Shown in pieces: positions 3,039 to 56,300 of a stretch of DNA of 64,000 nt; positions within the stretch are counted from its first letter, which is position 1; the number at the start of each line of letters is the position of its first letter. Source of the stretch: Eledone cirrhosa. Its lineage: Eukaryota. Under the pieces are notes generated by a model, which was not told the origin of the DNA, searched no databases, and was given only the letters and a program-made list of their open reading frames with translations. The stretch spans positions 33,728,001 to 33,792,000 of the forward strand of contig OZ024747.1 in the NCBI GenBank assembly GCA_964016885.1. Reading direction: 5' to 3'. Made by a program: the position numbers and the translations under genes.

Positions 3039-3083
3039 TTTCGTTTCTGAATTTGTTTAGCAATATTCTTTATCTGAAATCGT

Positions 3084-3931
3084 GTGTTGAAACCGATATT
3101 GTTATACTTTGCGGATTTGGTACGGGTGATGAGAAATGTGTCCCGCATGTACAACCCCGAAGAACTAGAGAGACACATACAACACTTCATCCACCGTATG
3201 CAGTTCTCTGGCTACAATCAGAGAGATAGAATCAGAGTGTATAAAGGAGCCAGAACCAAATGGGAAAAAATGGTAAATAATGACATAAATGGGACCTGCC
3301 CCGTGTATAGGAGCACATTTTGGAATAGAATAGAAAGAACTAGGAACAAGGCCAATAGAATAAACTCATGGTATGATAGCAATAAATACCAGAGTGTAAT
3401 GTTCATCAATACAACCCCTAGAGGCGAACTAGCCTACAAATTTAGAAGGGCCCTAAATAAAAATAATCTCAATATTAAGATAGTAGAAAGACCAGGTACC
3501 TCCGTAAAAACACTTATTAGCAAGACATACCGGTTCCAAAGACCCTCATGTATAGATAAGAAATGTATAACCTGTAAAATAAGCCCCAATATTAACTGTA
3601 AAACTAGAAATGTAGTGTATAGCATAAGATGTACTGAAGGACAATGTAGAAACAAAAATATAGTGTACATAGGTGAGACAGCTCGTAGTATAGGGGAACG
3701 AATAAATGAACACTGGCGAGAATCCAAGATAATAAAGAATCATCTGTGCTCTACCAACATGCTAAGATAGAACACAGGGGTAGATTTGAGAACATAGAAA
3801 TAAAAATAGAATCCACACACAGAAAAGACGCAATGTTTAGGCAAATTACAGAGGCAGTAAGCATAAAAGAATTAAAACCAAAATTAAATAGAAAATATGA
3901 GTGGAACAGCAACATCACAACTTACAATTAA
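3084..3931 (+). pseudogene. Penelope-like element ORF remnant: RT C-terminus, Cys-rich linker and GIY-YIG endonuclease, frameshifted near 3720-3750
   Basis: NVVYSIRC...VYIGETARSIGERINEH (GIY-YIG), upstream C-x4-C-x2-C-x7-C linker, continued in the next frame by HAKIEH...RQITEAVSIKELKPKLNRKYEW. Confidence 0.9.
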
Positions 3932-4161
3932 GGACAAAATGAAAACACACACAGGACAAAATGAAAACACACACACACATAGAACAAACAAACAACCAAC
4001 AATAAATAAATAAATAAATAAACAAATAGATAAATGAACACAAACACACACAGACACCCGGATGTGGCGCATGCGCAAACTGAGCACACAACACACACAC
4101 AGAAACAAAATGGCGTAGGATAGAAGAAAGGAAAGGCACAGAAACAAAGAAAGGAATCCCC

Positions 4162-4206
4162 AGTCACTGAAGAGGTCACAGAGTGTGTGACGAAAGGACT
4201 ATGACT
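4162..4206 (+). ncRNA. Minimal type I hammerhead ribozyme in the PLE 3' region
   Basis: agtca-CTGAAGA-ggtcac agagtgt gtgac-GAAA-ggac-TA-tgact. Stem I agtca/tgact and stem II gtcac/gtgac are perfect; stem III is vestigial. Confidence 0.85.
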
Positions 4207-4369
4207 ATATATAAACAACTATCTGGTTGTGGAAGCAACCAACCACCCAGAAATTTATAGGTTTGTAAATTTGTAAATTTATAAATTTATAAATATATAA
4301 TAAATTGAAGTGAAAGCATGTGGTGCGTGTGTTTCTTATTGGCAACATGACCCTCCCAAAGTATAACAA

Positions 4370-4394
4370 TATATATTATATATATATATATATA

Positions 4395-5354: not shown

Positions 5355-5440
<86 letters not shown>
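5355..5440. repeat. (TA)n(GA)n compound microsatellite
   Basis: Visible directly. Confidence 0.95.
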
Positions 5441-5442
<2 letters not shown>

Positions 5443-6128
5443 TAAGATTAATATATCTGAGGGTACAATGTACCCCCAGAAATGAGAGCTACCCGAATAG
5501 GTAAATATTTATATTATATTTTTTAATTTTGATTAATTTTAATTGTAAATTAATTATGATTTATTTTGAAAAATTGGTTGAATTTTACTTGTTCTGCTTA
5601 TCTTCATATTAAGTTCTGGTATATCAAATTAATACCATAGAACCACCTTGAATCATAGACAACCATGTATTTCTGGGGGTACATTGTACCCTCAGATAGA
5701 TTAACCTTACACTTTATTCTCCGATTATGTAGAGAAAAAATTCCGTCGTTCTATCTAGCTGCTAAAAATTTATTTTTTTGGTGGCGAGCATAGACAACAA
5801 GTCTACGATTTCCCGCCTTCACTATACACCAACGTATTTATGGGTCTCTTTCACGACCTTTCAGACCTGTATTAGTTGGAGTGAGGTCATATATTTTATC
5901 GTTCCTGGGGTTTTTAACCCTAGGAAAGGAAAATGCTTCTCTGATGATCTTTGCTTTTCCATTAATATCCATGTGATATTTAATGTTTTGCAAAGTGAAA
6001 CTGTACAGTAAGAGCTGCCCGAATAGGTAAATATTTATATTATATTTTTTAATTTTGATTAATTTTAATTGTAAATTAATTTTGAGTTATTTTGAAAAGT
6101 TGGTTGAATTTTACTTGTTCTGCTTATC

Positions 6129-6135
<7 letters not shown>
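5439..6135 (+). mobile_element. Retrozyme-like non-coding element B (526-nt monomer, 125-nt direct repeat, 45-nt 5' inversion)
   Basis: 5485-5609 repeats at 6011-6135, starting at the HHR cleavage site. 5439-5483 is the reverse complement of 5669-5713 (2 mismatches). Ends in (TA)n. Confidence 0.82.
5935..6015 (+). ncRNA. Type I hammerhead ribozyme with extended stem II
   Basis: gcttct-CTGATGA-t ctttgc...cattaatatc catgt gatatttaatg...gcaaag t-GAAAC-tgtaca-GTA-agagc. Palindromic actgtacagt; predicted cleavage after 6010. Confidence 0.88.
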
Positions 6136-6181
<46 letters not shown>

Positions 6182-7021: not shown

Positions 7022-7092
7022 TATTTTATTATGCCCATTTCAAAAACAAATATCATCCACTGACGATATTTGCGTTCTCATCAGATAAAATA
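7022..7092 (-). ncRNA. Type I hammerhead ribozyme
   Basis: Minus strand: tattttat-CTGATGA-gaacgcaaatatcgtc agtg gatgatatttgttttt-GAAA-tgggca-TA-ataaaata. Perfect 8-bp stem I and a long stem II. Confidence 0.85.
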
Positions 7093-7164: not shown

Positions 7165-9900
7165 ACATGTGGGCTGGGTGCTTTTTTTGCCGTGGCACCT
7201 CCATGACCACTTTGCAGTGGGAGGGGGTGGGGCATATTGTCTATATGCTTCAGCTTCGGCTTGTTCCTGGGGGAAGTCGGGTCGTCATTTATCACCTCAT
7301 CCCAGGTCTTCTTGGGTCTCCCCACACCGTGGCTTCCATTGACTTCTAGTGCTCTGCACATTTTAATGCAGCTGTCATTCTTCATACACATCATATGTCC
7401 ATACCAACACTGTCTCCTCTTCTGCACACAGCATTTGATTCCTCTTATGTTCAGTCTCACTCTCACTTCATTTATGCTTTGCTATTCACGTATATTACTA
7501 TTAAACATCCATCAGAACATGCAAGCTTCGCTTAATTCTAATCTGCGCAAGTCTTCTACAAAGAGCGCCCAGGTCTTACTACCATGTAACATTGCTGTTC
7601 GTATACTCGCATCATAAAGTATGTCTTTCATTTTGAGGGAAAATCCTTTTGCAGCTGGCAGTGGTAGTAGCTCCTTTTAACTTCTTCCATCCCGTTCTTA
7701 CCCTAGTTATTGTACATTCCAAACACCCACGTCCATTCCAAACACCCACGTCCAGAGTTTGGTGGTGCTTGTTTCCTGTGGCCGTTTGCTGCTTGCTGTC
7801 CCAGTGCAGCTGTAACATATGAAGCCTACATTCTTAGTTAATCTTCCTGAGATCCCACTTCATCTCTTGTGTACCCATTGTTTGCATTTGGGGAAGTGGA
7901 TGGAGTTCCTACATACTGAGCAAGGCCATTTCCCTGAGGGGATCTGGGTTCTGGTTTCTCGTCTACTTACACGAATCTTTGTCTTTGTCAGGTTGAGTTT
8001 GAGACCGTTTCTTTCTAATACCTGCTTCCATGTTTGGAATTTCTTCTCTAGTTCTACCATAGATTCAGCTATAAGTGCAAGATCATCCGCATATAGGAGT
8101 TGCTATGGGCATCCCGTCTGAAACACCTCCGTTATTGCCTGCAAAACTATAATGAACAGGTGTGGGCTAAGAACAGAGCCCTGGTGGACACTGACCTCTA
8201 TGCTAAATTCCTCGCTAGAGTCATTGCTAACCTTAACTTTGCTGACTGCTTGTACAGCTTTCACAAGCCATTCATCTACTCCTAATATTCTAAGAGCCCA
8301 CCAGATTATAGCACAGGGGCTCTCTCAAAGGCTTTTTCCAGATCAACGAATGCCCGGTAGAATGGCTTTCCTTTAGCTAGGTACTTTTCCTGTAACTGCC
8401 TCACAAGGAAGAGGGCATCAGTGGTGCCTTTTCCTGGTACAAAGCCAAATTGCATCTCATCTAGTTTTACTCGGTCCCTAATCAACTGTGCTATAACTCT
8501 TTCCGTTACTTTCATGATCTCGCCCATCAGCTTTTCACCTCTATAGTTTCCTCTATCTAGTGCATCACCTTTACCTTTGTAGCAGTTGACAATGATGCTG
8601 CTGCACCAATCCTTAGGGATGATACCCTCTAGTATTTCCTGGTTAACAATTTGTGTGGTTATGGTGTGACCTACCAACCCAGATGCCTTCAGCATCTCGG
8701 CAGCTATACCCACTGGACTGGTTGCCTTCCGCGTCTTCATATCTTTGATTGCCTTACTTACTACGCTGCTGCTGACTTGTACTGCTGGCCCCTCAATAGG
8801 GTCCTCTTGGGGTAGGTTCTCATTTTCTCATGCATTCTGCTCATTTAGTAATATTTCATAATGGCTATTCCACGCATCTTTCTTCTCGGCACTTGTAAGG
8901 GCAAGCTCACCTTTTTTTTATTATGGACACACTTCTTTCCAATGACATCACAATTCTCTCTGACACACCTCCTGTTTCTGGTCCTCACGTTGCAAAACAT
9001 GCTTGAATTTTCTATCCTCCTCTTCCCTTCTAGCTAAGTATACTTGTTGCCTTCTGTTTCCAAGTTCGTCTAGTTTTGACAGGGAGGTCGCTGACAACTA
9101 AGTTATGTTGGGAGGTATATTCCTCACCAGGGAAGGCTTTTGTGTTTACAACCGTCCATCTATCATGCCCTCTGATCAGGATAAAATCTATTTGACTAGA
9201 ATGCTCCCCTGATCTATAGATGATCAGGTGGTTGTCGGATATTTTGAAGTTTGTGTTACATATTGACATGTCATTGGCGTTGCAGAATTCCAGAAGCCTG
9301 AAGCCTTCTTCATTTCTTGTGCCAAGCCCGTGGCCTCCATGGACTCTATAGAAGCCGTCACGGTGTTTACCTATGTGTCCGTTAATATCTCCTGCAATGA
9401 TTAGGAAGTCATTGTCGTTTGTTAGAGCAGTAGTGTGCATTAGGGACTCATAAAATATATCCTTAAGTTAGCCTGGCAACGCTGACTGGGGTGTGTAAGC
9501 TCATACTATTGTGGCAATTGTTTTATTCAGGACTAGACTGAATTCAATGATTCTTGCATTCACCCTGTTCACTGAGATTACCTTATCAACCCATTTGTCA
9601 GCCAATAGTATAACTACCCTCCCATCCCGTTGTCATTTCCCATCCAGAAAAATTTGTAACACTGACTTTTGCCTACAAGGACTCTAGCGGACTCTCCTCT
9701 CCATCTAGTCTCTTGCACACAGCATACATCAATTTCCTTTCACTCTAGCATCTCTACAATTTCTCCTGCTCTTCCTTTCATTGTGCTTAGGTTGATGGTT
9801 CCAACTCGAAGTTTTGGAGAATTGCCATCACTCGTAGGATAGCGTAAACTTTTGCAGGGGCGTATGCTTCCTGTCTCTGGATTAAAGCTTTGCATGGGTG
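7165..9900 (-). mobile_element. Near full-length decayed RTE-like LINE, family A (APE + RT + PHD-like insert)
   Basis: APE motifs (LRVGTINL, VQETRW, GDINGHIG, SQIDFIL) and RT motifs (KGDALDRGNYRG, QFGFVPGKGTTDA, FVDLEKAF, VHQGSVLSP, YADD); several stops and frameshifts. Confidence 0.93.
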
Positions 9901-53317: not shown

Positions 53318-56300
53318 CTAGGGCGGGTAAAATTCCCGAGATCCATGGACGAGTTCTTTCCAGCGGTCTCTGTCTCTCAATATCGCTGCCATGTGATGCG
53401 GCTCCAACCGACCAGTGTCTGTCCTTAGGGCATCAACATACGTTAACCTTGGTCTTCCTCTTTCAGTGTGTCCATGTAGGGGCTCCCACAGGAGCACTGA
53501 GTGCAATGTCAACTCTAGATGTTGGTGAGCATGTCCAGCTAACCTCAGTCTCCTCTGTGTCACTTTTGAGCTGACTTTTGGGAGGCTCCCATACAGCTCT
53601 GAGTTTTTCATCCTCACTGTATACTGATTAATGTTCAGAGCCATCCTCAGCATTATCGTGTAGCACCCATCCACCATCTGAGTGAGTTTCATCGTCAGTG
53701 TCCAAGTCTCAGACCCGTACAGCAGCACAGACGCCACTACAGCAATGAAGAGGCGGATTTTCAGGTCTTTACGAAGGTCCGACTTCCACACCGATCTCAA
53801 GCTGTGGCACGCCACCCAGCCTTTGCTCTTCCTCTCAACCACATCATCTTCCGTATTCCCAATCTTTACTCCCAAATACAGGAAGCCCTCAAACAATTTT
53901 AGCGGCTTCCCGCCTACATTAGTGATCCCCTCTGGCTTCTCAACATTCTCTACCAGATATTTTGTTTTAGTCTCATTCATTCTCAGCCCGACACTCATCG
54001 ACACAGTCTCAACCTCCCGCATCAAATCCTCTGCCTCCTTTACTGTATTTGTCACCAAAACTATGTCGTCGGCAAATTCAGCATCTGATACCTTTTTCGT
54101 CTTAACTCTCCTGCTCTGAGCCTATGCTACAGTAAAGCCAGAGTCCTGGTGTTTCTCCAGTGCAAGGTGCATACAATAGTCCACTACGATGATAAAAAGG
54201 TAGGGAGCCAATGTATTTCCCTGGAGCACACCAGCCAGTATCTCAAAGAACTCTGTCATCCCATCAGGTGTAATGACATGGGCTTTGGTGTTGGTGTAGA
54301 GCAGTGATATCAGGTCCACTATCTTCTTGGGGATTCCATAAGCCTGTAAGATCTTCATCAGGCAGTGATGGTCCACAGAATCAAATGCCTTCCTAAAGTC
54401 AATGAAAACCATGACCGCAGGAAGGCACTTTGTTCTAGCTCCCTCTAGTATCCTCCTCAGCATCAAGATGTGACTGGTGGTTGATCTTCCCTCTCTGAAG
54501 CCGTTCTGGTTGTCCCTGAGCTTCTTCTCCATCTCAGGCTGGATCCTGTTAAGAATCATCCTGTTGAGGCTCTTTTCCACAGGTGACGCCAGTGAGATCC
54601 CCCTGTAGTTGTTGGTGTTAGAGAGATCTCATTTCTTTGGCACTGGGACGATGTTACTGATCCTCCACTGATTCGGGACAACTCTTTTCTCCAGTGCCCG
54701 GTTACAGAACCGTAGGATGACATCATCAAAATCACACCTTTTCATCACCTCTGATGCTACTCTATCTTCTCCATGAGCCTTGCCCTCCTTGATCCTCTTC
54801 TTGGCTCTCTGAATCTCCTCTCTGGTGAAGGGCTCTGTCTCAATATCCAGTTCCTCAAACAGATGCCTGATCTCCCCATTCCTGACTCAAATACCTTCTC
54901 TTCCTACCTGTGATCTCGTTGATGATCATCGAGCTCTCCTTACATCCAGATCTGTCAACCGCTCTCTCCACACATCTGATCTTCTCTATCAGTGCCTCCT
55001 CTCTGGTCTCAGTGTAAGCAGTACAGAGTTCTTCCCTCATCACCTCCACAGTCTCCATCCTCTCCTCCGTAGGATCAGCATAGAATTGGTCCTTGGCAGC
55101 TTTCAGGTGTTCTCTGGCTGCACACACTTTTGGGTTTGGAGAGCTGACGTGCTTCCTTTTGTTCTTTTTCCTTGGCACCAGGGTTTCACTTGCTTCCGCC
55201 ACTGCATTGGTGAAGTGCCCGTACCTCCTTTTCATACTCTCCTCAGTCCATCCAATCTCTCTCTCCTCTATCTCTCCACACAGAGCACTGAACCTGTTCC
55301 TCATTTCCACTGTAAACTTCTCCTGTAGCTTATCATCTTCCTTGAAAGCTCCCCAGTCATAGATTGTTCTCCGGGGCTGAGCCTTGCTCTTTCTTAAGCT
55401 CACCCGGATCTCACTCATAACAAGCCGGTGGTCACTGCCCAGTGTACTGAAATAGTTGTATGGTTCTGTGTTCCGCCACTTTTTCCTCACCAGAATGAAA
55501 TCAATCTGGGACTTGGACAGGTGCATATCTGAGATGTAGGTCCACATCTTCCCCGGATTCTTCCTAAACCTTAGGTTGGTCGATATCAAGTTCGCCTCCA
55601 GCAGGGTGTCTCTCAGTAGTCTTCCATTTCAGTTGGTGTTGTTATGGAAGTACCAGCAAGGATCTTCACTGCCCTCTTTACTCAGATGTGCTTTGAAGTC
55701 CCCCAAAACAAGCAGGATGTTGTGTGCTTGAGTGTTGTTGACAGCTCTACACACCTCCTCATGGAACTCTTCTGCACTCACATCACTGTCCCCCTCGGTT
55801 GGACTATAGGCTGAGATGACTGTCAGTTTTGGGTTTCCATTAAAGGTCACCCTCAACACTCGCAGGGAGACAGGCATTATTTCCCTCACCAATAGACTGG
55901 TTTTTGTGCTGAAAACAAAACCCACTCCTCCCACTGCAGCATTGATCATGTTCCTCACTGCTGATGTGGTGATAAGCTAGCTCATTTTCCCAATCATCAC
56001 ACTCCTCACGGGCTTATCGTGTAGGATCCTGTGTTCTTGGATTGCAAGTATCTGTATACCACTCTCCTCGAACAGATGTCCCAACTCCTCTCTCTTCTCC
56101 AGCGTCCGAATAGTCCTCACATTCAAAGTGCCCATTTTGATGGCTCTTCTGCAGGACAAAACTGCATTCTTTATATTTGTCTCAGAGACGGCTGATCCAT
56201 CATCCACTGGCCTTCTCTGTAGCTCTAAGCCAGCAGAGTCATAACGACCAGACTGCACCTTGACAGTGTAATTAGGGGCTCTAACCCTAGTGATGTTAGA

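Follow-up and report, generated by a model that had tools for sequence, protein, structure and literature searches.

The locus described here raises the question of whether a hammerhead ribozyme carried by a mobile element sets the 5' end of its new copies, as the ribozyme of R2/L1Tc-type elements does. In the window, by which we mean the whole 64,000-nt stretch of Eledone cirrhosa DNA that was analyzed, a 125-nt direct repeat (5485-5609 and 6011-6135; 96.8% identity at a spacing of 526 in a self-comparison of the window) begins at the base that follows a GTA triplet, where a type I hammerhead is predicted to cut. The original prediction took this coincidence as the sign of an RNA template with a ribozyme-generated 5' end whose reverse transcription had also passed through an intact junction. 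The sequence observations behind it were borne out: the repeat is real, the hammerhead core runs from 5941, the triplet ends at 6010 and is followed by AGAGC, and the upstream repeat copy begins at 5485 with no hammerhead 5' half ahead of it. The coincidence of start and cut in this copy is also real, yet it is shared by only ~2% of copying passes. The insert, called element B here, is a non-LTR retrozyme inserted in (TA)n with Penelope-like footprints. The element type, non-LTR retrozyme, and the model for its mobilization are already in print.

The insert is more than the one monomer plus 125 nt that had been described, given that a 45-nt inverted arm at its left end (95.6% identity to 5669-5713) had been overlooked. 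Its whole order is (TA)n(GA)n, the 45-nt inverted arm, one G, 651 nt in forward orientation, and (AT)n (Table 1). Monomer positions, m1 to m526, are counted from the base after the predicted hammerhead cut. Since 5439-5483 is the reverse complement of 5669-5713, what lies at position 5485 is an inversion joint, and the element does not meet host DNA there. The sequence across the joint is AAAT-G-AGAGC; past it, the inverted arm would go on ACATGG, whereas CAGTA is what normally stands before the forward arm. Either the two arms were joined bluntly at the cut with one untemplated G, or they were joined two bases upstream (m525-526) through a 2-nt TA microhomology that later underwent one A>G change. 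The chance that one copy starts within the three positions at the cut is ~3/526, and 8 independent copies genome-wide do so. Two contig sets of unknown kind contain pieces of the family; none of these pieces runs across the window joint, and they have no bearing either way.

Table 1. Coordinates of element B and of the features around it in the window
Feature	Positions	Strand	Remarks
5'-truncated Penelope-like fragment	3078-4370		RT thumb and GIY-YIG remnant (weak Pfam match, 3078-3770, E 0.0004); CxxC linker
Left target	5356..5439	.	(TA)n then (GA)n microsatellite, from the sequence
Inverted arm, matching 5669-5713 (monomer positions 185-229) in reverse complement	5439..5483	-	45 nt, 95.6%; on its outer side it stops at the second fixed 3' end of the family
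Lone G at the joint, matching neither arm	5484..5484	+	Untemplated, or A>G inside a TA microhomology
Full noncoding monomer, m1-m526	5485..6010	+	526 nt; first base is the base after the predicted cut
Hairpin with TCTGGTA...CATAGA	5614..5642	+	~5 nt past the first fixed end; candidate RT recognition signal
Hairpin of 11 bp	5672..5696	+	Predicted fold; ~17 nt short of the second fixed end
Site of the second fixed 3' end (window numbering, m225-229)	5709..5713	+	Penelope-like "tail," ~105 nt beyond the first end
Predicted type I hammerhead ribozyme	5931..6020	+	Core CTGATGA 5941-5947, GAAA 5997-6000
Hammerhead stem III palindrome ACTGTACAGT	6000-6009	+	Pair 10.1-11.1 of the hammerhead is U-U; its cut is predicted between 6010 and 6011
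Second, partial repeat, m1-m125	6011..6135	+	Stops at the first fixed 3' end of the family; exact stop ambiguous within 6132-6135, where ATAT fits the flank too
Right target	6136..6178	.	(AT)n microsatellite, from the sequence

The ribozyme of element B is predicted from its motif, from one compensatory pair, and from its conservation. Some 205 to 235 units keep the core, with stems I to III paired, position 17 has A and T equally often (119/119) and never G, and the pair m466-m510 is T-A in 96 units and G-C in 70, which is compensatory. Within the window, no Rfam family was found at gathering threshold, and the minimum-energy fold of 5925-6030 lacked the hammerhead core (z -0.34). The usual pair at 10.1-11.1 is G-C; in element B, this pair is U-U in 196/206 units, which together with the energy fold suggests a weak ribozyme. 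The stem III palindrome ACTGTACAGT could pair between two copies. Palindromic stem III sequences favor double hammerheads. The repeats of the axolotl are reported to cleave better as dimers (PMC7229834). Other hammerhead-like letters occur nearby. Positions 5865-5885 (m381-400) hold TTAGTTGGAGTGA, the letters around the cut of another hammerhead family (L011, L013, and L220); this may be a second ribozyme site that has decayed. On the minus strand, CTGATGA with similar flanks recurs at ~6285 and 7084, and the motif at 7084 passed the motif scan.

A pattern search of the assembly of this 3.0-Gb genome found the m125 end followed by (AT)n in 16 + 302 exact matches, and the copy number is thus at least 318, counting exact patterns only. 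A second fixed end became apparent at the sampled loci, which were taken from among the matches listed: an inverted partner was present for 31/104 arms, and 27 of these 31 inverted arms stop at m218-236. These two counts leave aside 7 listed matches that belong to the 111-arm sample used below, one of which starts at the cut. A pattern for this end (~m225-236) picks up further loci in either orientation. The family has a fixed 3' end, 5' truncation, and partial tandems that form a pLTR, as well as an adjacent inverted 5'-truncated copy and a one-sided tail of ~105 nt. Head-to-tail tandem monomers with a 526-nt period are dispersed, with dimers and trimers at many loci. Two whole ribozymes, which could release a monomer by double cleavage, are present in 12/111 arms; the window copy has only one and so could not itself release a monomer in this manner. 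The monomer is noncoding, with a longest stop-free stretch of 81 codons when circularized, and it contains neither the RT nor the GIY-YIG open reading frame of an autonomous Penelope-like element. GC content around the element is ~0.30, in keeping with the low GC of retrozymes, and the folding z of the monomer is -4.89. Related retrozyme families with the same layout and a differing stem III were also seen, at ~73 to 76% identity (L144, L146, and L227) and at ~60 to 70% (L220, L124, and L089); in the L146 family, pair 10.1-11.1 is G-C in place of the U-U of element B.

We then asked where the 5' ends of the family lie. The sample comprised 149 loci with 210 5' ends, picked by their 3' end or an internal junction from among the matches listed; it left out 202 + 1 of the 302 matches to the m125-end pattern and dropped L046 (contig start) and the duplicates L085, L160, and L166. 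A first copy set (40 of 1977 candidates scored) was excluded as a 5'-end sample given that it had been ranked by similarity to a query beginning at the cut. Apparent starts at query position 55 proved to be alignment clipping at subfamily differences. The 210 ends are scattered around the monomer. Five of them fall at m525-m1, where 1.2 are expected, and 10 of the 526 three-base windows hold as many or more. The top window is m11-13, just past the cut (9/210), and the second-highest cluster is m122-128 (8/210 in one window), which corresponds to exact one-turn insertions of ~526 nt and reflects either ATAT microhomology or an enzyme stopping after one turn of a circle. The first cut was passed by 100/111 forward arms and the second by 21/25 of those reaching it, with a median length of 495 nt.

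The genome-wide counts gave the same picture. We found 447 exact read-through junctions and 8 independent true starts within 2 nt of the cut (~2%), so that ~98% of copying passes in the family run through the cut site. If ends were uniform, ~2.9 starts would be expected. Of the 8 found, 7 lie at inversion joints and 1 at (TA)n; they remained from 13 rows lacking the preceding G after three point mutants and one deletion were removed and two rows were counted as one event. When the filters were matched, the cut had 5 true starts for 447 read-throughs and the control site m437 had 5 for 341 (Fisher p 0.75, or p 1.0 when only the 3 in-family control events were counted). The matched rows numbered 7 at the cut, which included one internal deletion and two rows from one duplicated event, and 6 at the control, which included one deletion and two rows (L144 and L146) from a more distant family. 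The matched cut filter was blind to one phase of (TA)n joints, which further patterns covered, and the genome-wide controls consisted of one site for the cut and one for m13. A pile-up of 5' ends at the cut is therefore absent as a family rule, the rate there being equal to that at the control. The claim of a ribozyme-made 5' end combined with junction read-through divides accordingly: passage through an intact junction, such as a circular or multimeric template would offer, is upheld by the 447 exact junctions and by the arms that pass both cuts, and the ribozyme end fails as a rule.

Element B is probably a 526-nt noncoding hammerhead repeat that is written into TA microsatellites by a borrowed Penelope-like RT, from an RNA that is intact across the ribozyme site and is most likely a circle. 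In such a mechanism, an endonuclease would cut both strands of (TA)n, after which one DNA end would prime at m125 and the other at ~m230 of the same type of RNA. The two cDNAs would stop at variable points, and short microhomology would join them to each other or to the TA repeat. In the window copy, the m125 cDNA would have run 651 nt and the m230 cDNA 45 nt, and the placement of their joint on the cut could reflect a template opened by the ribozyme, an enzyme paused at the ribozyme fold, or a chance stop. The helper supplying the enzyme would likely be a Hydra-clade element.

The comparison of repeated parts within single insertions bears on the form of the template. At 49 subfamily-diagnostic sites, tandem units within an insertion agree in 1027/1042 comparisons and arms or pieces within one insertion in 892/920, where 54% is expected in each case. 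Repeated parts inside an insertion differ at 457/24,321 sites (103 insertions), compared to 6.9% between insertions. By these comparisons, the units and arms of a single insertion derive from one template lineage. Repeated parts show no difference at all in 14/103 insertions, one of them over 455 sites, and have a private variant in common in 22/103. Where repeats within an insertion do differ, they often differ at stem II, with G/A at m511 in 10 insertions and G/T at m506 in 6, and a hot spot of mutation or RT error beside the core is suggested at these two positions.

A linear template that was transcribed through genomic tandem copies and stays uncut, the weak ribozyme rarely cutting before reverse transcription, is possible but rather unlikely. 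The U-U closing pair and the unfavorable fold of the monomer speak for it. It also agrees with the in vitro work in PMC11167929, in which uncut RNA was the dominant substrate and no RNA-seq reads ended at the cut, and with the Xenopus dimers of bioRxiv 10.64898/2026.07.22.740005, 8/9 of which did not cleave. One insertion (L236/L237, G000:C4:362.40 Mb) carries an identical G>T in the ribozyme stem III of both arms; either a single molecule, whose ribozyme was apparently damaged, was the template for both arms, or the arms were homogenized later, and the shared mutation would fit an uncut linear template better than a ribozyme-made circle. However, cleavage seems to have a role at some step, given that subfamilies have kept the core and show a compensatory pair. 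In addition, the 14/103 identical and 22/103 variant-sharing insertions are what would be expected from one monomer read repeatedly, and with an uncut linear template, lengths would probably shrink over generations unless there were a circle or long master arrays. We therefore favor the circle as the template, on the strength of the identical repeats, the shared private variants, and the Discussion of PMC7229834, as far as that text goes.

The route proposed originally, in which the usual template is a linear RNA with a ribozyme-made 5' end and the cDNAs run off at the cut, is largely refuted as the usual route, and we regard it as improbable. The 8 starts set against 447 read-throughs, the second cut passed by most arms that reach it, and the start rate equal to that of the control site all speak against it, although the window copy and 7 other independent copies do start within 2 nt of the cut. 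The m11-13 window could also consist of trimmed run-off ends. Ends joined to TA number 22 at m1-13 and 11 at m139-153, as the numbers at risk predict (p 0.72), and this too counts against run-off, whereas in a matched ATAG context, TA-joined ends number 10 at m13 and 1 at m153 (one-sided p 0.047 after scaling), which counts in its favor. A further point in favor of run-off comes from the inversion joints, among which the cut is the top window (5/107 in the sample, compared to 0.61 expected). Without the window copy, 4/106 lie at the cut (p 0.003), and genome-wide there are 7, compared to ~1.5 expected; outside the sample, the excess was not significant (2 versus 0.94 expected). The control site m437 is likewise above the uniform expectation, and a pause at the folded ribozyme would also give an excess at the cut without cleavage. 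We put the case for a real excess among inversion joints that is caused by the cut at slightly better than even, and that for a ribozyme-made end in the window copy itself at a little below even. Separately, L005, L006, and L007 share a recurring inversion joint of m213 to m13 with AATA microhomology, and the right flanks of L005 and L007 differ; this is either a recurrent joint or the result of two-armed copies having moved as a unit.

If the RT, on reaching the 5' end of a cut monomer, instead jumped to the 3' end of a second one, the read-through junctions would be template switches at the cut, which would explain both the intact junctions and the occasional stops at m1. Units do differ at common polymorphic sites in a few insertions (15/1042 tandem comparisons; L018, L054, and L181). 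Nevertheless, tandem units agree at 98.6% of diagnostic sites, where a pool of templates would give 54%, and the junctions are exact with no bases gained or lost (by construction for the 447 pattern matches, and also in the junctions that were inspected), so we consider such switching very unlikely. An origin at the DNA level, through satellite-type recombination or fold-back repair with no RNA step, would suit the few loci that are segmental duplicates (L084/L085 and L165/L166) but is most improbable and appears already contradicted by the fixed, strand-specific ends, given the dispersal on many contigs, the two fixed 3' ends with variable 5' ends, the (TA)n that flanks copies left and right, and the occurrence of this two-end layout in a coding Penelope-like family as well.

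That coding family emerged from a helper search whose query was an endonuclease fragment found beside one element B copy; it is the one coding family whose ends were examined, and the genome holds several. It has a 719-codon frame with RWK, DKT, and CxCX5C motifs, it shows the Hydra features described in section 11 of PMC8557442, and it carries its own hammerhead, with ends clustered at ~+34 and ~+112 after its cut. Pfam gave no match for the Hydra-type frame, and the assignment follows from the motifs. A hairpin-folded motif, TCTGRTA-N2-20-CATAGA, lies 9 to 10 nt past the first end of the coding family and ~5 nt past m125 in element B. In the 1.75 Mb scanned, it occurred only in element B, one relative, and the coding Hydra-clade family, and shuffled sequence gave 4 matches in 5.24 Mb; the motif was defined after both sequences had been seen. 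A wider alignment, of the monomer's first 270 nt against the end region of the Hydra family, scored 50, which 81/300 shuffles equaled or exceeded. Given the post hoc motif and the nonsignificant wider alignment, the Hydra-clade family is a lead and not a result as the putative helper of element B. The window's own Penelope fragment was also considered as a helper and set aside: the end region of 3078-3770 has no match to element B, and the hairpin motif is absent from it. The longer fragment (3078-4370) contains a minimal hammerhead-like motif at ~4161-4207, seen by eye, and has near-identical relatives in L026, L046, and L172. Elsewhere in the window, there are RT fragments of other retrotransposons on the minus strand (8306-8827 and 53318-54628) and, by eye, two inverted copies of another repeat (~1420-1925 and 2115-2610) around a microsatellite-rich spacer.

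According to a published proposal (Cervera and de la Pena 2020, PMC7229834), a Penelope-like enzyme reverse transcribes the circles of metazoan non-LTR retrozymes to give tandem cDNA. Element B resembles these retrozymes in its noncoding, low-GC monomers, which are arrayed in tandem and carry one type I hammerhead each, a likeness of sequence in which expression, cleavage, and circles are predicted features. It differs from them in its 526-nt monomer, compared to ~170 to 400 nt in PMC7229834 and 51 to 972 bp in bioRxiv 10.64898/2026.07.22.740005, and in its fixed ends, inverted arms, and (TA)n targeting, which are absent from the available text of PMC7229834 (the word "microsatellite" has 0 occurrences there). 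Partial tandems, an inverted 5'-truncated neighbor, a one-sided tail, a hammerhead, and insertion in (TA)n are shared with Penelope-like elements, in particular those of the Hydra clade (Craig et al. 2021, PMC8557442). Unlike those elements, element B has no open reading frame, and its tail is ~105 nt compared to their 30 to 40 bp; with the one Hydra end region compared, it has no alignable homology beyond the 13-nt hairpin motif. In vitro, the PAc Poseidon enzyme cuts both strands of AT-rich DNA, and two internal RT start sites define the tail (Frangieh et al. 2024, PMC11167929). Uncut RNA is its substrate, and ribozyme cleavage is unneeded, given that ribozyme mutants insert equally well. 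Two start sites, an AT-rich target, an uncut template, and the lack of ends at the ribozyme cut are thus common to PAc Poseidon and element B, although the former is autonomous and coding and starts in an AC-rich stem-loop, and the assays described in PMC11167929 do not include a noncoding circle. Animal retrozymes have also been proposed to be nonautonomous derivatives of Penelope-like elements, from co-occurrence and pLTR homology in vertebrates (Li, Clavereau, and Pollet 2026, bioRxiv 10.64898/2026.07.22.740005). The proposal of mobility driven by Penelope-like elements is the same as ours, and the available text of that preprint contains no mapping of insertion ends. In contrast to R2/L1Tc-type elements, the 5' junctions of element B do not coincide with the cleavage site (8 versus 447; 5/210). 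Among titles and opening abstracts, a range that leaves most subscription papers and all supplements outside, we found no publication that maps retrozyme 5' ends against the cut or describes the element B family.

In summary, our analysis supports a template that is intact across the ribozyme site, likely either a circle or an uncut multimer, two forms that none of the genomic comparisons made here tells apart. Given that the element type and the model are already in print, the gain is incremental. In the literature available to us, the mobilization of animal retrozymes has been proposed, so far without demonstration, and the element B family provides a quantitative genomic answer to one part of this problem, in that new copies do not have their 5' end set by the ribozyme cut, in agreement with the in vitro data on a Penelope-like RT (PMC11167929). 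From the same analysis come a helper that can be tested and a candidate for the RNA signal. As a tentative and rather doubtful extension, ~98% of cDNAs may roll through a sealed circle and ~2% may run off at the ribozyme nick as inversion joints, with the TCTGGTA...CATAGA hairpin recruiting a Hydra-clade RT to the noncoding circle. If this were true, the family would offer a germ-line readout of whether the RNA is circular or cut, along with a defined RNA-enzyme pair with which retrozyme mobilization could be tested.
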